From Escherichia coli (GTDB taxonomy: Bacteria > Pseudomonadota > Gammaproteobacteria > Enterobacterales > Enterobacteriaceae): a stretch of 6,335 nt of DNA. Made by a program: the position numbers and the translations under genes. The first letter of the stretch is position 1. Every line of letters begins with the position of its first letter. The DNA lies in assembly GCF_003334355.1 (NCBI RefSeq), contig NZ_QOWP01000066.1. One strand, written 5' to 3'. The notes below the pieces were generated by a model. That model was not told the DNA's origin. It ran no database searches and saw nothing but the letters and a program-made list of their open reading frames with translations. Shown one piece after another: positions 1 through 6,335 of this stretch.

Positions 1-80
1 ATGCTTCCATCGGAAACGATGATCTGGCAGCCTGAGTTCACAGATAAAACACTCTCCAGGAAACCCGGGGCGGTTCACAA
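1..80. repeat. Left copy of perfect 80-bp terminal inverted repeat
   Basis: Positions 1-80 are the exact reverse complement of 6256-6335 (80/80). Identity breaks at position 81 versus 6255. Contains GTTCACA twice (36-42, 73-79) and the 12-mer TAAAACACTCTC (45-56). Confidence 0.97.
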
Positions 81-1200
81 TTATGCGGTTATATCGCTTA
101 CCTGCGGCCTCAATGAATTTTTGCTGCCCTTTAGTAGCAGACTCATAAAGCTGTTTATCTGAAATGCCTCCCAGACCATCGTTATATGTTCTGACCAGAT
201 TTTCCCGAGCCTGTTGTTGATTCAGCCTGTTCGTACCCGTTCCAAAAAAAGGAATTTTTTCGCCTGTTTTCTGGGCCAGACTCTGCACAGTGTTTTTATC
301 TTTCAGTACGTCACTGGTCATTAACGGTAGGTTTCTTTCCGATGCAAAATCAACAGCGGCTTTCGCTTCCGGTGCCATATCACCGCGAACGGCCCTCGAA
401 ACGGCACTCACTGTATTCTCCAGACCCTTACCAATGCCGCCAATGCCAGCAGAGATTACCGTTTGTAACGGATCAATATCTTCTCCACCAGCGAGGCTGG
501 TGGCTCCCTGTAGTGCTAAATCTGTAGCTGCTGATTTCCCTATGGCCCCCAGCACCGTTCCGGCCCTGCCCGCTGGTGTAAACGCCAGCGCATTAGCCAG
601 AAACGATGCCACGTCTTGCGGTGATAAACCCGGCTTGTTCAGAGCATAATCACCGGATGGTAGGGAAACGATAGTGTTACCCTTCTCATCCTGCCTTAAT
701 TTCGCTCCCATGCTCTGAAGAATCTTTTCCTGAGATGCGTCAGAGCCGAAAAGTTGAGACCATCGAGCTTTTAGAGCATCCATGCTGAGTGAGGTTAACT
801 CTGGGGCAAGGTCGACATTTTGCAGTCTCTCCATCTCTGGAGTCATTCGGCTTTCGCCTGTTATAGCATCGCGCATCGCAGCCCCAAGACTGGCTCCCTG
901 TTCTGCTGAACGTTCAAGCCCCTCTCTTTGCTGAGTCGCTAACTTTGCATACCCTGACGCAAGAGAATTATCAGATGATGTATGTTGAATATTTTGAGTT
1001 GCTGATTGGGCTCGGTCTATTTCATTCGTTGATGGTAGTGGATAGGCAGCATAAAAAGCCTGCTTAGCCTGCTCTACACTTTCTCCGGCTTGCGGGGCAA
1101 CGACTTCGTTGAAGTATTGCTCCTGAGCCTGCGCTTTTTGTTCTGGTGCTAACGCCTGATACTGTGGAGAGGCGATAACATCTTTCCATGCTTTAGCCAT
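1..1200 (-). CDS. Hypothetical protein, third gene of minus-strand operon; 400 codons in window, 3' end beyond window start (partial)
   Basis: ATG at 1200..1198 overlaps the TAA stop of the upstream gene by 1 nt (TAATG), implying translational coupling. SD-like GGGGTG lies 5-6 nt upstream. Hand translation of all 400 codons down to position 1 shows no stop (MAKAWKDVIASPQYQALAPEQKAQAQEQYF ... GKRYNRIIVNRPGFPGECFICELRLPDHRFRWKH). Ala/Gly/Gln/Ser-rich with no catalytic motif recognised. Absent from the ORF track, presumably because it has no in-window stop. Confidence 0.8.
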   Translation of the reverse strand, partial: MAKAWKDVIASPQYQALAPEQKAQAQEQYFNEVVAPQAGESVEQAKQAFYAAYPLPSTNEIDRAQSATQNIQHTSSDNSLASGYAKLATQQREGLERSAEQGASLGAAMRDAITGESRMTPEMERLQNVDLAPELTSLSMDALKARWSQLFGSDASQEKILQSMGAKLRQDEKGNTIVSLPSGDYALNKPGLSPQDVASFLANALAFTPAGRAGTVLGAIGKSAATDLALQGATSLAGGEDIDPLQTVISAGIGGIGKGLENTVSAVSRAVRGDMAPEAKAAVDFASERNLPLMTSDVLKDKNTVQSLAQKTGEKIPFFGTGTNRLNQQQARENLVRTYNDGLGGISDKQLYESATKGQQKFIEAAGKRYNRIIVNRPGFPGECFICELRLPDHRFRWKH

Positions 1201-2666
1201 TAATCACCCCATAGTGAAGAAAAGTTACTGCTGGCTGCTGGCTGTGATACCTGCTCAGATTGCGGCAATGTCTGCGACGAAGAAGAAGTTCCTCTGTCAA
1301 CTGCTGAAATAACCCGCAAAGCATCATAAGCTCGACCAGAAGCAGCTTTCAGCGAATTGAACTGGTTTTCCATCTTCCGGCGCTTGGTATCAATGGTTTT
1401 TGTGGAATCACCAGGCTGAGGGAAATACATTTGATAATATTTTGACATTTCAGCAGGTACGATAGCTGCCCCTGTTTCCTGACGGAGTATTGCCATTATT
1501 GCGTCATTAGCATTAACAACGTATTGCTGCTCTGTTGGGCTGAGCGTTAAGTTAGCCAGCGTCCCATTACCCAAAGCATTATTAATGATCGCCACTCGCT
1601 GTGGGCTAATCTGGCCTTTCAGTGTATCCATTGAATCAAGAGCATCCCTAACTCTGTATGCAAATCCAGCAGCTTTTTTAGCCCCTTCTGGCGACTTTTC
1701 CATGATCTTTTGAGCTGTTGGCAAAGCTATTAGACGAAACCCATCTCCAGATATTGGCTGGTTTAGTTTTCCCTGCTCTTCACTTCCGTCTGTGTAGTAT
1801 TTTGTGACAGTGCCATCATCGTTTTCCCTAACACTCATTAATTTTTTGGCGTTTGTATTAATTCCAGCCGCTGCCGCAAATGCCGCCGCCCCCTCTGGAT
1901 CCGCCTTTAACATTTGAGCGTACTGATTGTAATTCTGCATTGCTGCTGTTGGTGCATATGCTGACGTTAACGCATTTGCTCGGCTAATATCCTGCCCTCT
2001 CGCCTGAAGTGCTTCGCCAGCCTGATTGCTGCGGATTGTCTCTGCCAACTCGCCGCGCTCAATATCCCGACCTTCCATTTGATCTTTGATATCGAAATAC
2101 TTCTCATGACCGAGAGAAAACAGCGCCAGATTACCTGCGAAATGCTGGAAGCCCTGCGGGTCATTAACCTGCATTTCAGCAATAGTTTCTGGAGGGATAC
2201 CTAAACGACGCATCTCCTGCTCATTATCCATCATGAACCTGCCAAATGCGCCCGGACCAAGCGATGAGGCTACCTGTGCTTTGAGCGCCAGATTGCCATA
2301 ATCATCCCTTTGAGCATCATCGACATAACTCATCCCTTTACGGACTTCCTCAAACTCTTCTGGGAATGCTGTAATAAGATTACGCATCTGCTCCCTGTCG
2401 CCGGACGCATAAGCATCTGCATAACCTTTCTGGAATGCCGCTTTACGCTCCTGCTGTTGCTGCTGCTTATAAATATCAGCAACTCCAGCCAGACCACGTA
2501 ACGCGGTCAGACCAACGTTATTTGCACCTGAGCGAGCCAGTTCATTGTTTTCGCGGATCAGACCAAGCGTTGCGTTAATGTCGCTTGCCTTTGGCGCATT
2601 CTCGTTTTGCGTACCGATGCCAGCCAGAAAACCACCAGAATTAATACCCTGTTGCCACGTAGCCAT
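1200..2666 (-). CDS. Hypothetical low-complexity protein (488 aa from ATG), second gene of operon
   Basis: The ORF track gives 1200..2678 (492 aa) starting at a GTG that overlaps the upstream small ORF. I prefer the ATG at 2666..2664 (MATWQQGINSGG...), 4 nt after the TAA of the 57-aa ORF. Stop TAA at 1202..1200. Contains a QQQQQ run and Ala/Gln-rich segments. No Walker, HNH, integrase or nuclease motifs seen by eye. Confidence 0.85.
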   Translation of the reverse strand: MATWQQGINSGGFLAGIGTQNENAPKASDINATLGLIRENNELARSGANNVGLTALRGLAGVADIYKQQQQQERKAAFQKGYADAYASGDREQMRNLITAFPEEFEEVRKGMSYVDDAQRDDYGNLALKAQVASSLGPGAFGRFMMDNEQEMRRLGIPPETIAEMQVNDPQGFQHFAGNLALFSLGHEKYFDIKDQMEGRDIERGELAETIRSNQAGEALQARGQDISRANALTSAYAPTAAMQNYNQYAQMLKADPEGAAAFAAAAGINTNAKKLMSVRENDDGTVTKYYTDGSEEQGKLNQPISGDGFRLIALPTAQKIMEKSPEGAKKAAGFAYRVRDALDSMDTLKGQISPQRVAIINNALGNGTLANLTLSPTEQQYVVNANDAIMAILRQETGAAIVPAEMSKYYQMYFPQPGDSTKTIDTKRRKMENQFNSLKAASGRAYDALRVISAVDRGTSSSSQTLPQSEQVSQPAASSNFSSLWGD

Positions 2667-2670
2667 TGAT

Positions 2671-2844
2671 TTACCCACGTCCAGTTAAAGTGTAAGCCAG
2701 CGCCTTATCCATTAATCCCCGAGCAATTTCGTGGATCGTTGGCGCAACTCCTACCTCTGATTTTTTACGCTGCTCCTCCTGAATTTTCTTTATCGCTTCC
2801 ATTTGCTTCTCACTTATCAATACTGGCTTTACTGAAATAGCCAT
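2671..2844 (-). CDS. Small 57-aa protein, possible ribbon-helix-helix-like DNA-binding regulator (inference)
   Basis: ATG at 2844..2842 preceded by a strong SD (AAGGGGG, 4 nt spacer); stop TAA at 2673..2671. Translation MAISVKPVLISEKQMEAIKKIQEEQRKKSEVGVAPTIHEIARGLMDKALAYTLTGRG has a short N-terminal beta-like segment (KPVLIS) followed by two predicted helices, as in Arc/Mnt/CopG-type folds. Too short for the ORF track. Confidence 0.55.
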   Translation of the reverse strand: MAISVKPVLISEKQMEAIKKIQEEQRKKSEVGVAPTIHEIARGLMDKALAYTLTGRG

Positions 2845-2877
2845 AACGCCCCCTTAGAACTGTATAAAACAACAGTT

Positions 2878-2905
2878 ATTATAGTTTCACAAATCGCAAT
2901 ATTAA
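2878..2905 (-). promoter_or_regulatory. Candidate sigma70 promoter for the three-gene operon
   Basis: On the minus strand a perfect -10 TATAAT (plus-strand 2878-2883), a 16-bp spacer and a -35-like TTAATA (2900-2905, 4/6 match). The predicted start is about 25 nt upstream of the 57-aa ORF ATG. Confidence 0.4.
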
Positions 2906-2918
2906 TCATCGCAATTGC
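2893..2918. promoter_or_regulatory. Operator-like repeats overlapping the -35 region
   Basis: Direct repeat ATCGCAAT at 2893-2900 and 2908-2915 flanking the palindrome ATTAAT, plus the 8-bp perfect palindrome GCAATTGC at 2911-2918. Confidence 0.35.
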
Positions 2919-2939
2919 AAAATATGAAACAAATAGCAC

Positions 2940-2972
2940 AAAAAAATGCCACCGCTCAGTAGCTGGTGGCAT
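2940..2972 (-). terminator. Rho-independent terminator between the primase unit and the downstream operon
   Basis: Minus-strand RNA reads AUGCCACC-A-GCU-ACUG-AGC-GGUGGCAU followed by UUUUUU: an 11-bp GC-rich stem with one bulge and a 4-nt loop, then a 6-U tract. Lies downstream of the primase gene and iterons, and upstream of the operon promoter. Confidence 0.7.
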
Positions 2973-3166
2973 CGTTCTGTATGTCAGGTTTTGACAGGTT
3001 TTTTATGGACTCTAAAAACTATATTTATGGTGTCGCATTACTCTTCACGGCAGGCGCTTTCCAGTTCTGCCCTTGCTTCTGGCTCCATTGGTAATTTGAT
3101 TCGCGATCAGCTATGCGGATGGTTTGCTGAACAGGCATAACAACTTCTCAAAGGCTGTTTTTTGAA

Positions 3167-3183
3167 CTACGAAAATTTCGTAG
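3167..3183. promoter_or_regulatory. Palindrome CTACGAAA-A-TTTCGTAG, putative protein-binding site
   Basis: Perfect 8-bp inverted repeat with a 1-bp centre. Shares the TACGAAA/TTTCGTA half-site with the palindrome at 3222-3242. Confidence 0.35.
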
Positions 3184-3221
3184 TGCTCACTTTCAAAAAC
3201 GTCACGCCCTTGTACACAGGA

Positions 3222-3242
3222 TTTTACGAAAGTCTCGTAAAA
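3222..3242. promoter_or_regulatory. Palindrome TTTTACGA-AAGTC-TCGTAAAA, putative protein-binding site
   Basis: Perfect 8-bp inverted repeat with a 5-bp spacer. Overlaps the 12-mer TAAAACACTCTC (3238-3249), which also occurs in the terminal inverted repeat. Confidence 0.35.
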
Positions 3243-3291
3243 CACTCTCTGATGCCAGCCAGGTGTTGTGCGCATCAATTCAGTCACATTG

Positions 3292-3405
3292 TGTTGGTTC
3301 AAAATACCGTGTTGTTGGTTCAGTGTTGGTTCAATAAAAAGAATAAAATCCTTATAAAACAATACTCTTTACAAATTGAACCAACTGAACCAACTGAACC
3401 AACAC
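3292..3405. repeat. Iteron cluster, putative replication origin or cis-replication region
   Basis: TGTTGGTTCA at 3292-3301, 3313-3322 and 3324-3333 (21- and 11-bp phasing). A 43-bp AT-rich spacer (3334-3376). TGAACCAAC at 3377-3385, 3386-3394 and 3395-3403 in inverted orientation; the 11-mer GTGTTGGTTCA is perfectly inverted at 3395-3405. Starts 24 bp after the primase-helicase stop. Confidence 0.6.
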
Positions 3406-3428
3406 CTTTTCTACGCACATGAAGAAGC

Positions 3429-6185
3429 TCATTCTTCAGATGAGTTGTAATCTCCTGGCTGGTAATTGAGTACATAAACGTTTATTTGTCGTCCCTGAAT
3501 ACGTGGTGATTTTCTTTGGTATCCACGACCGCTGTTTGGTGGGGTTAGCATCCCGGCTTTTTTCAACACTTCAGCAAACTGTTTTGCGTTGAAACCACAT
3601 GCGATCTCCTTTTCAAATGTGGCCGGGAATGTGTAGAAAATCATTGGGCTTTCGTCATGTTCTCCACGCTGACGGTATCCGGCTAAATCTTTGATTGGCA
3701 AATCTGCCGGGCTGTATGGAAATGGTGCAAAACGGCTAAGCCCATAGGCATTAAGAAATGCCTCCGTTTGTTCAATAATCTGCTGATGTTCTTTGTTACC
3801 TGTGCCGAACTCGCGCAACCATGCGTTATAGCTGTGCTGTATCGCATCACGGCATGTCTGAGCATCCCAGCCTGTTACAACCTCGCCTAACAGCAATGCG
3901 GCCTCCAGAATGGCAAATCGCGCGGCTACACGGTGAACCTGCTCACCATAATCGGATGGAATCAGGCTTCTCCATCTGCTTTCGCAGTCACGAACAGTTT
4001 TAATAGCCTGTTGCTGGTGGTCTGCCAGCCATTTAATCCACTCACGCCCGGCTGCGCCGTGGTGATGCTGGTAAGCGTCTTTCAGTGCGTCTGCGTGCTG
4101 TTTTCCGTTCTGGTAATCGTGAAAGAGTACTGCTTTACTCAACGGAATATTCAGCAGTCGCACCAGTTGCCCGGCTTTGGTTTTTCGCCCGGAAGTAGCG
4201 ATAAATGTTTCTAAATCCATTTCTCCAGTGCTGATTGCCACTGTACGCCAGCGTTTTAGATCCCGGTTTCCACCATCTTTAGCGCCTTGCAGTTTCCCTA
4301 CACCGTTAAATAACGCATAGGCAGACTGTGAAACACTGACAGGATCAGCGCCCTGACCAACTTCATCAAGCGGCATTAGTCCGTCATTGTGGGCGGCGGC
4401 TTCATTTGCCAGCCCCAGCGCGGTTCCGTACCACGTCAGCCGCAGTAAATCAGGGTTGCCGTATAAGCTGCTCGCCACGTTTGCCGTGGTGGTCTTACCT
4501 GCGCTCGACTGCTCATAGAAATGAATGCCGAACCCGTCAGCGCCCACCAGCCCAATCAATGGCGCTGCCAGTGCTGCGCCGATCCCGGTCATCATTGAAT
4601 AGTTACCAAAGGCCAGACGCGCCACGTTATCACGCCAGCTTTTCGCGCTCCCTGAGACGGTATATCCGGCTGCGGCTGAGCTTCTCCCGCTGAACAGCAC
4701 AGGATTTTCAGGTGTTCCGATGATTTCCCCATCAGGCATGATGTACGCTCCGCATTGCCAGCCAGTGGCATGAGCAACACGCCACAATTCACGAGAGCCA
4801 CTGCGTTGTAGCCAGTCTGCCAGTATTGCTCTGAGGCTGCTTTTGGTCGTGACATTTACCCCACCAGCTTTAAGTGTGCGCCATCCTTCACGTTCACCAA
4901 TATCAGCCAGTGGAATGGCAGCGGTTGTCGGCGTTTCAGAACCAAACGACAGCCAGCGAAGAATGAGATACTGGTCTTTATCGTCTCTGCCAGTACCGAT
5001 AACGCTTAACGGAGAACATAACCAGCTTTCGTTATTGATGATTTCTCCACTCTGGCTGTCAGCTCTCGGAGATACCCAATAAATACCATCCTCGCGGCTT
5101 TCTATTCTTGGTTTCAGTGGGTCGGTATCCATAACCTTAAAATCGCTTCCCTCAATGGTCTGTGGCTGCTGTTTCACGCCATTACCCTGTGGTTGGTACA
5201 TTGACTTATTGAACGCTTCTGTGGCGCATTTAATGCCGTGTTTTTGGTGGTAATCATTCCAGTCTGCTTTGTGATCTGTCGGGGGTAATGCCACCCATCC
5301 AGAAACAGATAAAGCTGCTTTTTCTGCTGCTATTCTCCCCGTGTTTTGTCTTCCTTCGCTGTGGTCGTTATCCGCAGCAATGATGATTTGTGCTGAAGGA
5401 AATTTATCCCGCAGTACCTGGGCGACATATAACAGGTTCCCGGCATCAATCGCCGCCACTGTCAGCGATTCTGGACGAATTAAATGGGCAGATAATGCCG
5501 TTGCCAGCCCTTCTGCGATTAAGATGCTCTGTGTTGTTTCTGGTGCGTTTATGGCGTGATATGCCCCTCGCTTTGCTGAACCTGTCAGGAGTCTTTTTTC
5601 ACCATGTGAGGTAATAGTCTGTGCTGCTGTGACTGCGCCGGATTTATCCACCAGCGCCAGCAACAGAGATCCATCGGGCAACACTGGGAATGTAAAATCA
5701 CCTACCCCTTTCGCAACCAGATAATCAGATTTGCCGTTTACAGCCTTTCTGCGCATGTCATCAAACTGACGGGAAAACGTATCCCGTCTTTGTTGTTCGT
5801 CCTTCTCTGCCCTTTTCAGGCGCTCCTGTTCGCGTCGCTGGCGCTCGGTTTCCAGTTGTTCCCGTTTCTGGCTGGTGGCTTCTGGTGTTTCCGTTGTCCG
5901 GTAATCAATACCCAGAACATCAGCGGCAAGAAGCGCCGCCTCTGTTGTGTCGCAGTTATTTACGCGTTTAATTAAATCCAGCCCATCACCAGCGCCGCAC
6001 TGATTACAGATGAAGCTACCGCGCCCGTTGTCGTCGAACCGGAATCGATCTTTGCCCCCACATGCAGGGCAGGGAGCATGACGGCGAGGAGAGTCAGGGA
6101 CATTTATGTTCAGACAGCCCAGCACATGAGGCCAGTTGTTTTCAGACGCACTGATAACCTGACGGATAAGATCAATGTTTCGCAT
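3429..6185 (-). CDS. Primase-helicase, P4 alpha-like (zinc ribbon + TOPRIM + P-loop NTPase, 918 aa)
   Basis: ORF track 3429..6185. ATG preceded by SD ACGGGGG with a 5-nt spacer. Zinc-ribbon motif CPACGGKDRFRFDDNGRGSFICNQCG (aa 39-63, nt about 5997-6071). Charged linker ERQRREQERLKRAEKDEQQRRD. TOPRIM signatures IAEGLATA and IIIAADNDHSEG (aa about 220-300). Walker A-like SSAGKTT (aa 560-566, nt 4488-4508) and Walker B-like MPLDEVG. The architecture matches the P4 alpha and DUF927-type primase-helicases of satellites and integrative elements. Confidence 0.92.
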   Translation of the reverse strand: MRNIDLIRQVISASENNWPHVLGCLNINVPDSPRRHAPCPACGGKDRFRFDDNGRGSFICNQCGAGDGLDLIKRVNNCDTTEAALLAADVLGIDYRTTETPEATSQKREQLETERQRREQERLKRAEKDEQQRRDTFSRQFDDMRRKAVNGKSDYLVAKGVGDFTFPVLPDGSLLLALVDKSGAVTAAQTITSHGEKRLLTGSAKRGAYHAINAPETTQSILIAEGLATALSAHLIRPESLTVAAIDAGNLLYVAQVLRDKFPSAQIIIAADNDHSEGRQNTGRIAAEKAALSVSGWVALPPTDHKADWNDYHQKHGIKCATEAFNKSMYQPQGNGVKQQPQTIEGSDFKVMDTDPLKPRIESREDGIYWVSPRADSQSGEIINNESWLCSPLSVIGTGRDDKDQYLILRWLSFGSETPTTAAIPLADIGEREGWRTLKAGGVNVTTKSSLRAILADWLQRSGSRELWRVAHATGWQCGAYIMPDGEIIGTPENPVLFSGRSSAAAGYTVSGSAKSWRDNVARLAFGNYSMMTGIGAALAAPLIGLVGADGFGIHFYEQSSAGKTTTANVASSLYGNPDLLRLTWYGTALGLANEAAAHNDGLMPLDEVGQGADPVSVSQSAYALFNGVGKLQGAKDGGNRDLKRWRTVAISTGEMDLETFIATSGRKTKAGQLVRLLNIPLSKAVLFHDYQNGKQHADALKDAYQHHHGAAGREWIKWLADHQQQAIKTVRDCESRWRSLIPSDYGEQVHRVAARFAILEAALLLGEVVTGWDAQTCRDAIQHSYNAWLREFGTGNKEHQQIIEQTEAFLNAYGLSRFAPFPYSPADLPIKDLAGYRQRGEHDESPMIFYTFPATFEKEIACGFNAKQFAEVLKKAGMLTPPNSGRGYQRKSPRIQGRQINVYVLNYQPGDYNSSEE

Positions 6186-6197
6186 TCTGGCCCCCGT

Positions 6198-6335
6198 TTA
6201 GTGCGTCACTGGTGCTTCTGGGATGCCGTTTTCGTTTAGTTCGGCAATAAAGCTGTTGTGAACCGCCCCGGGTTTCCTGGAGAGTGTTTTATCTGTGAAC
6301 TCAGGCTGCCAGATCATCGTTTCCGATGGAAGCAT
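6198..6335 (-). CDS. Small ORF (45 aa) directly upstream of the primase-helicase; start may lie beyond the window
   Basis: ATG at 6335..6333 and TAA at 6200..6198, ending 12 nt before the primase ATG. Translation MLPSETMIWQPEFTDKTLSRKPGAVHNSFIAELNENGIPEAPVTH. The first 80 nt are the terminal inverted repeat. Operon-like spacing with the primase supports it, but it is short and without recognised motifs. Confidence 0.4.
   Translation of the reverse strand: MLPSETMIWQPEFTDKTLSRKPGAVHNSFIAELNENGIPEAPVTH
6256..6335. repeat. Right copy of perfect 80-bp terminal inverted repeat
   Basis: Exact reverse complement of 1-80. Confidence 0.97.

Follow-up and report, generated by a model that had tools for sequence, protein, structure and literature searches.

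The window, i.e., the whole stretch of 6,335 nt of Escherichia coli DNA analyzed here, begins and ends with a perfect 80-nt inverted repeat (positions 1–80 and 6256–6335). These ends match the ends of IS3-family elements in thousands of E. coli records (IS629 is annotated under one match); the inverted repeat of an IS end being present on both sides, the window is a stretch bounded by two IS copies. Comparison with phage and plasmid collections yields matches at the IS ends only. The interior of the window is 99–100% identical to a chromosomal island of about 360 complete E. coli genomes, situated at the tRNA-Thr gene next to proA (thrW in locus L001); in all, matches occur in 365 genomes. The genes of the island are, in order, an integrase, an HTH regulator, an antirepressor, DUF4222, Ash, small ORFs, and a TOPRIM/DUF927 primase; the primase is followed by a 57-aa ORF, DNA-ejection proteins similar to gp20 and gp16 of P22, and PerC. 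The island is co-linear with EcCIMP1 (locus L093), the sequence being identical at the origin and at the hairpin discussed below. EcCIMP1 is the phage-inducible chromosomal island (PICI) of E. coli MP1, induced by phage Kapi1 and excised in a helper-dependent manner (PMC11773190). The island is an EcCIMP1-type PICI. It has the gene order int, alpA-like HTH regulator, pri of Gram-negative PICIs, which are characterized by co-orientation of int, the alpA-type regulator, and pri, a size of about 10–20 kb, integration at a specific att site, and induction by a helper phage; induction is known for the co-linear EcCIMP1.

The 918-aa product of pri-rep contains the Pfam domains Zn_Ribbon_Prim, Toprim_3, and DUF927, matches PHROG 1139 "DNA primase" (E = 3.5e-178), and is named "TOPRIM and DUF927 domain-containing protein" in RefSeq; on the Pfam and PHROG matches, the gene was correctly called a primase in the initial annotation. 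The protein has an acidic C-terminus (...NSSEE*), and its last codons, TCT GAA GAA, constitute the 5' arm, on the mRNA, of a short dyad centered near the stop codon. Two small ORFs over this site, at 3162–3422 on the plus strand and 3320–3475 on the minus strand, are treated as spurious because they overlap the iterons or the end of the primase gene; a PHROG search with the plus-strand ORF gives no match.

Gene end and predicted replication origin

The surroundings of the dyad are a predicted origin of the PICI/SaPI type (Table 1). Published origins of this type consist of two inverted sets of iterons around an AT-rich region, directly 3' of pri-rep (Fillol-Salom et al. 2018, PMC6092414; PMC7581432, which cites Ubeda et al. 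2007 for the SaPI type), and that of EcCICFT073 was examined by a plasmid-maintenance assay (PMC6092414). The origin considered here shares the position directly after the stop codon of the primase/initiator and has, as far as its sequence tells, two inverted iteron sets with a 9-bp period (GTTGGTTCA) and a 43-bp AT-rich spacer. The initiator, like SaPIbov1 Rep (PMC7581432), carries a DUF927 helicase domain. There is also a likeness to satellite phage P4, whose alpha protein is described with ori and crr in the summary given in PMC6092414: both have a fused primase–helicase–origin-binding initiator and a second iteron cluster several kb away, although here the helicase is of the DUF927 family, the iteron sequences are different, and the origin is directly 3' of the gene. 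The second cluster of the island lies upstream of perC (5136–5260 in L001).

Table 1. Features at the end of pri-rep and in the region downstream of it.
Feature	Coordinates	Strand	Sequence or basis
Primase-helicase gene pri-rep, 918 aa	3429–6185	−	ORF, Pfam, PHROG, RefSeq annotation
Stop-codon dyad	3420–3438	−	mRNA UGAAGAA-UGAGC-UUCUUCA; 7-bp stem, 5-nt loop with the primase UGA
Origin leader (spacer from stop to first iteron)	3406–3428	−	Alignment of 55 non-redundant leaders
Primase-proximal iteron set	3377–3405	+	3 × TGAACCAAC (+AC), 9-bp period
AT-rich spacer (43 bp) between the inverted iteron sets	3334–3376		Sequence; published PICI origin organization
Distal iteron set	3293–3333	+	GTTGGTTCA at 3293–3301, 3314–3322, and 3325–3333
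Intrinsic-terminator-like site	2940–2972	−	TGCCACC-N11-GGTGGCA, then T7; scan and direct reading

On the mRNA strand the proximal iterons read GTGTTGGTTCA GTTGGTTCA GTTGGTTCA, and the first of them starts 24 nt after the primase stop. The distal iterons are inverted relative to the proximal ones; in EcCIMP1 the distal set has one extra, spaced copy. The spacer between the sets is presumed, by analogy with the published origins, to be the melting region.

The leader reads GC TTCTTC ATGTGCG TAGAAAAGG on the mRNA strand after the stop. It comprises a pyrimidine-rich flank, UUCUUC in the mRNA (plus strand 3421–3426), which precedes the core CAUGUGCG, an instance of the motif CAYRTGNG (plus strand 3414–3421); GTAGAAAAGG follows the core on the mRNA strand. 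The 3' arm of the dyad in the mRNA is this flank together with the first two bases of the core (CA).

The stop-codon dyad as a single-site structure

On the plus strand the arms TGAAGAA (3420–3426) and TTCTTCA (3432–3438) enclose the loop GCTCA (3427–3431) and form a perfect stem of 7 bp; the primase TGA, seen as TCA at 3429–3431, falls inside the loop. Reading of the sequence, together with the end of the 918-aa minus-strand ORF, bears out the initial annotation, which had described precisely a dyad with the stop codon in its loop.

The dyad is weak, its stability is modest, and its thermodynamics are unremarkable. The bare 19-mer in the mRNA sense folds with −4.9 kcal/mol; in a 31-nt context the energy is −7.5 kcal/mol (z = −1.35), which is at least equaled by 16 of 200 dinucleotide shuffles, and in a 101-nt context z is +0.11. 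Folded as DNA, the dyad has z = −2.0, with 9 of 200 shuffles equally good. A search for perfect stems (7 bp or longer, loops of 3–8 nt) gives nine hits at six distinct sites in the window, against 2.2 ± 1.8 hits in shuffled sequence; the gap of 585 bp that follows the primase gene contains three of the six sites. Across a given stop codon, a Watson–Crick stem of 7 bp is expected in about 0.3% of cases in uniform random sequence. The family's gene end being purine-rich and its downstream flank pyrimidine-rich, the chance of a stop-spanning stem is raised: with this composition the expectation is 1.3% for seven Watson–Crick pairs, and 13% if G–U pairs are allowed.

Searches for known elements at the site are negative. 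Rfam has no family at the dyad, and in the whole window at E ≤ 1 gives only two spurious matches of miRNA models, both on the iteron inverted repeat. The scan for −10/−35 promoter elements has no match in 3400–3440; a promoter reading out of the iterons, considered by analogy with the perC-proximal iteron copy, is rejected on this account.

The initial annotation also held that the dyad is not a terminator for lack of a U tract, and this is upheld. Like a rho-independent terminator, it is a stem–loop at a gene end, but only two of its seven pairs are G–C, so that the stem is not G+C-rich, and the stop codon sits inside the loop. Beyond the stem the mRNA strand continues with UGUGCGUAGAAAAGG and the plus strand with GATGAGTTG; since neither strand has a T/U run, the dyad is no intrinsic terminator, nor is it among the sites found in the intrinsic-terminator scan of the window. 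The terminator-like site at 2972–2940, which lies about 455 nt past the end of the primase gene, is a better candidate and is probably the end of the pri transcript. Beyond this candidate, at 2905–2878, there is a promoter-like site for the genes of the 57-aa ORF, gp20, and gp16.

An alternative to be weighed is that the dyad functions as RNA within the pri mRNA, slowing or modulating translation termination or protecting the transcript against 3'–5' decay. For this speaks the fact that the stem is part of both the minimum-free-energy (MFE) and the centroid structure of the local mRNA; the low stability and A/U-richness of the stem speak against it. The mRNA channel of the ribosome spans roughly 12–15 nt 3' of the A site. 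By this textbook geometry both arms would lie under the ribosome during termination, so that a stem of −5 kcal/mol could form only on untranslated RNA. Moreover, since the transcript probably runs about 455 nt further, to 2972–2940, the stem is not at a 3' end where it could block exonucleases. Taken together, the covered arms and the longer transcript make a role in termination or 3'-end protection mechanistically unlikely.

Comparison with homologous loci

The homologues comprise three divergent E. coli copies (L002–L004, 66–71% identity) and 80 loci from one-genome-per-species Enterobacterales, collected with a profile of the C-terminal 371 residues. The hairpin tests are based on 48 non-redundant homologues, and the alignment of the leader box on 55 non-redundant leaders. 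In most of the 80 loci the iterons, which have a 9-bp period and fall into several sequence classes, are immediately 3' of pri-rep, and most loci have a common plan of the junction: acidic tail, stop, pyrimidine-rich tract, core, A/T-rich stretch, iterons. The last residue is Glu in 38 of the 48 non-redundant loci; purines make up 76% of the last 12 coding nucleotides, and pyrimidines 70% of the first 10 nucleotides after the stop.

As a control we used chimeras, which combine the gene end of one locus with the sequence that follows the stop in a second locus. Of the 48 real loci, 50% have a stem of 5 bp or more across the stop when G–U is allowed, as do 43% of the chimeras; in permutations, p is 0.29 for the length of the stem and 0.28 for the MFE. 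If only Watson–Crick pairs count, a stem of 7 bp or longer is present in two of the 48 loci, namely the window and L009, and in 1.3% of the chimeras. In the register of the window, 59.6% of the cells of alignment A3 pair, compared with 58.6 ± 1.0% in column shuffles (104 of 500 reach the real value), and the covariation score is 0.149 against 0.143 for shuffled columns. When the partner is slid by −2 or −3 columns, pairing is equal or better: due to the purine-rich gene end and the pyrimidine-rich flank, about 60% of cells pair in any register. Consensus folding of the homologues with RNAalifold predicts no pairs, and the register and loop size (3 to 10 nt) vary among the stop-spanning stems of the homologues.

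A natural experiment is provided by six loci in which the stop is at 0 or 42–81 nt from the iterons. In five of them (L048, L067, L071, L074, and L085) extra sequence lies between the stop and the origin; in L044 the box is inside the coding sequence, the gene continuing through it. In each of the six the box has stayed next to the iterons, and no stem across the stop is longer than 4 bp. Overall, the box is conserved and stays linked to the iterons, and the pairing of the dyad shows neither covariation nor conservation.

Two further comparisons concern individual loci. The window and L009 differ by an apparently compensatory pair of changes (GAAGAA/TTCTTC versus GAGGAA/TTCCTC). Four aligned variant E. 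coli copies keep the dyad, with one synonymous change from GAA to GAG that turns the closing A–U pair into G–U; being about 99% identical to the window, these copies carry no weight on the question of conservation.

The RNA element discussed above would be favored by the compensatory-looking change in L009 and by the stems of at least 5 bp, G–U included, that about half of the homologues can form across the stop. Against it, the pairing does not exceed that of chimeras, shuffles, or slid registers, RNAalifold gives no consensus structure, the register and loop size are not constant, and the hairpin is missing wherever the stop and the origin box are apart; we consider such an element very unlikely. 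Conservation of the dyad in homologues, which the initial annotation had named as the check, is thus not observed, perfect 7-bp pairing being confined to two of 48 loci, pairing being equal to that of the controls, and RNAalifold giving no consensus. Of the possibilities the annotation had listed, coincidence stands, whereas an effect on termination or mRNA stability does not agree with the conservation, chimera, and displaced-stop tests.

The choice of stop codon bears on another reading, in which the dyad is a recoding signal for selenocysteine insertion or for readthrough into an extension, ASSCA, that ends with TAG. Indeed, the stop is UGA, it is embedded in a hairpin, and an in-frame TAG occurs six codons after it. 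However, the stop codon of most homologues is TAA or TAG; this excludes recoding of the selenocysteine type and by itself effectively refutes the signal, and the putative extension ASSCA is not conserved in homologues. Bacterial SECIS hairpins lie 3' of the UGA, are larger, and have a specific apical loop. The dyad shares with them, and with readthrough stimulators, only the proximity of UGA and hairpin: with its 7-bp stem it is far smaller, the UGA is in its loop rather than 5' of the hairpin, and it lacks conservation. A recoding signal is hardly credible here.

The leader box and the source of the dyad

The alignment of 55 non-redundant loci over the 32 nt before the first iteron yields the leader consensus TTTYTC-AYRTGNG-...-WWWW-..TG-iteron. 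The motif CAYRTGNG is present in its strict form in 29 of 55 leaders and in a relaxed form in 43 of 55; with a background of about 0.4% per leader, this is an approximately 100-fold enrichment. The box is always 13–19 nt before the called start of the iterons. Its core is unchanged across the iteron classes GTTGGTTCA, GTTGTCTCA, GTCGGTTC, CTTATCCCA, GTGGGTTA, and CCGGTCAC; as the core is the same whatever the class, the box is not a degenerate iteron. A DnaA box beside the iterons was considered as well: six homologues (L013–L016, L022, and L025) carry TTTTTCACA, and the DnaA box is perfect in some homologues, but none (TTWTNCACA, at most one mismatch) is found at 3405–3440 of the window, and hence it is not a family-wide feature. 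Likewise, a palindrome or hairpin within the leader box, pairing its Y-rich arm with a downstream A/G-rich arm, is striking in L068, L026, L030, L038, and L074; as a feature of the family it is rejected, since the stems of 54 leaders do not exceed in length those of chimeras or shuffles.

These data also bear on the possibility that the dyad acts as DNA, being a palindromic site for a dimeric protein or a small cruciform that aids the loading of Pri-Rep next to the iterons. The distance to the last iteron is 15 bp, the left arm of the dyad (plus strand) overlaps the conserved leader box, the folding of the dyad as DNA is somewhat above that of shuffles (the z = −2.0 given above), and some homologues have clean palindromes at the box, e.g., TTTCTCATGTGAGAAA in L068 and CCTCACATGTGAGG in L026. 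On the other hand, the right arm is coding and its position relative to the box differs between loci, palindromy of the box does not exceed that of chimeras (mean stem 3.37 versus 3.56, p = 0.92), and 3405–3440 contains no DnaA box with one mismatch or fewer. In addition, stable extrusion of a cruciform requires more than a 7-bp A/T-rich stem. We regard a DNA-level role of the dyad as quite unlikely.

The dyad is real but ordinary, and it is very probably a by-product of composition rather than a selected structure. On this reading two separately constrained sequences happen to abut here: the codons of the acidic tail (Ser-Glu-Glu, TCT GAA GAA) and the flank of the origin box, TTCTTC with CA, the CAYRTGNG box belonging to the replication origin, at a fixed distance before the first iteron. 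Since GAR codons are complementary to a YTC-rich tract, short stop-spanning stems, differing in register, arise easily in this family; the perfect match over 7 bp in this E. coli lineage would be one such stem that arose by chance. Against this by-product reading it can be held that an exact 7-bp dyad over a stop is uncommon even by the family chimeras, let alone under uniform composition (the 1.3 and 0.3% given above), that the change in L009 looks compensatory, and that a stem of 5 bp or more, G–U included, is possible in half of the homologues. Given these stems, selection for "generic complementarity" without covariation is formally conceivable. From the above, we infer a DNA-level action of the box in the function of the origin, and no role for the hairpin itself.

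The conserved CAYRTGNG box of DUF927-type PICI origins is the sole mildly new observation of this analysis. The passages describing PICI/SaPI origins in PMC6092414 and PMC7581432 contain neither a CAYRTGNG leader box nor a stop-codon hairpin. Tentatively, the box may have a function in these origins that has not been described before; it could serve, e.g., as a primer start or recognition site for the Zn-ribbon/TOPRIM domain, as a mark for helicase loading, or as the site of a host factor. In that case the dyad at the stop codon would merely reflect the box in the codons of the acidic tail.

The result removes a candidate regulatory RNA: as a hairpin, the dyad does not matter. More generally, an acidic C-terminal tail beside a pyrimidine-rich origin flank can mimic a structure at a stop codon. 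As a side product, the anatomy of the replicon of an EcCIMP1-type PICI is precisely delineated: it starts at the pri-rep stop, includes the leader box, three iterons, the AT-rich spacer, and the three iterons of inverted orientation, and ends at a module boundary near 3246. Provided that the leader box has a function, the model of the PICI origin, which at present consists of the iterons and the AT-rich region only, would gain a component.

The origin leader and the iteron classes

The analysis of homologous primase-helicase (pri) loci from one-genome-per-species Enterobacterales (L007–L086) shows that, in the first 60 nt past the leader, the iterons keep a constant period of 9 bp while their sequences fall into discrete classes: GTTGGTTCA, GTTGTCTCA, GTCGGTTC, CTTATCCCA, GTGGGTTA, ACGGGTTA, CCGACAA, GTGTGTCA, and CCGGTCAC. 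Presumably, the iteron class goes with the C-terminal domain of the primase-helicase, which is variable. The array is enlarged to at least seven tandem copies in one locus (L028).

The leader box is the same whatever the iteron class, and lies 13–19 nt ahead of the first iteron. Among the non-redundant loci, the strict form of CAYRTGNG is present in 29 of 55 and the relaxed form in 43 of 55 (background 0.4%). Where the stop codon is displaced, the box remains with the iterons and not with the stop. One locus, L067, has a second box-like copy (TTTTTCATGTGAG) approximately 85–100 nt past the stop; as this extra copy sits beyond the tandem array, the box here is found on either side of the iterons.

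In three loci (L045, L064, and L069), another coding-looking sequence begins right at the primase stop, overlapping or adjoining it, and no iterons were found within the first 90 nt past this stop; hence, the origin of these loci must be elsewhere. In two of the divergent E. coli copies (L002 and L003), a gene for a single-stranded DNA-binding protein is annotated shortly past the origin.

Features of the window and of related loci
Feature	Location	Strand
Terminal inverted repeat, perfect, 80 nt	window 1–80 and 6256–6335	
P22-type DNA-ejection protein genes, gp20-like and gp16-like	window 82–2678	minus
Sigma-70-like promoter, TTAATA-16-TATAAT, after the terminator-like hairpin	window 2878–2905	minus
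Intrinsic-terminator-like hairpin with T7 run	window 2940–2972	minus
Two perfect 8-bp hairpins with TACGA...TCGTA arms in common	window 3166–3184 and 3222–3242	
Module boundary	window about 3246–3290	
Conserved origin-leader box, CAYRTGNG with pyrimidine-rich 5' flank	window 3406–3428 (core 3414–3421); L007–L086, just before the first iteron	
Second iteron cluster	L001 (chromosomal copy of the same island) 5136–5260, with the origin at pri ~7.6 kb away; L005 1480–1610; L006	

A second iteron cluster at perC

Most genomes carrying the island have two such iteron sites. The second consists of three copies of GTTGGTTCA, then an AT-rich stretch, then inverted copies with spacing; it lies immediately upstream of perC and touches a TATAAT-like hexamer ahead of the perC start. 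The cluster recalls the ori/crr of P4 or, alternatively, iteron-mediated control of perC.

Genes left of the origin and the window ends

This PICI, without capsid or terminase genes, carries P22-type DNA-ejection genes. The gp20-like protein has 492 aa; the gp16-like gene has a transglycosylase-type PHROG match. In EcCIMP1, the co-linear PICI of E. coli MP1, the corresponding genes are similar to genes of Kapi1, the podovirus that serves as its helper (PMC11773190). The sigma-70-like promoter precedes a 57-aa ORF (2844..2671), which has no family match and shares an overlap with the gp20-like gene at the latter's start.

Both window ends match inward-facing ends of IS3-family insertion sequences (IS629 is annotated under one match). 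One IS copy cuts short the gp16-like gene and the other interrupts the sequence that lies upstream of the primase; the window therefore resembles a contig with repeat copies as its borders.

The downstream module and the replicon boundary

The two hairpins (ACTACGAA-AAT-TTCGTAGT and TTTTACGA-AAGTC-TCGTAAAA) fall inside the downstream module 2845–3245, and could be operator sites. In strains SEC470 and W284, this module adjoins a different replicon, with a DUF5906 protein and CTGTACCAC-type repeats. The sequence left of the boundary is common to islands with a DUF5906 replication protein; to the right, the iterons, leader, and pri form a separate exchangeable replicon cassette.
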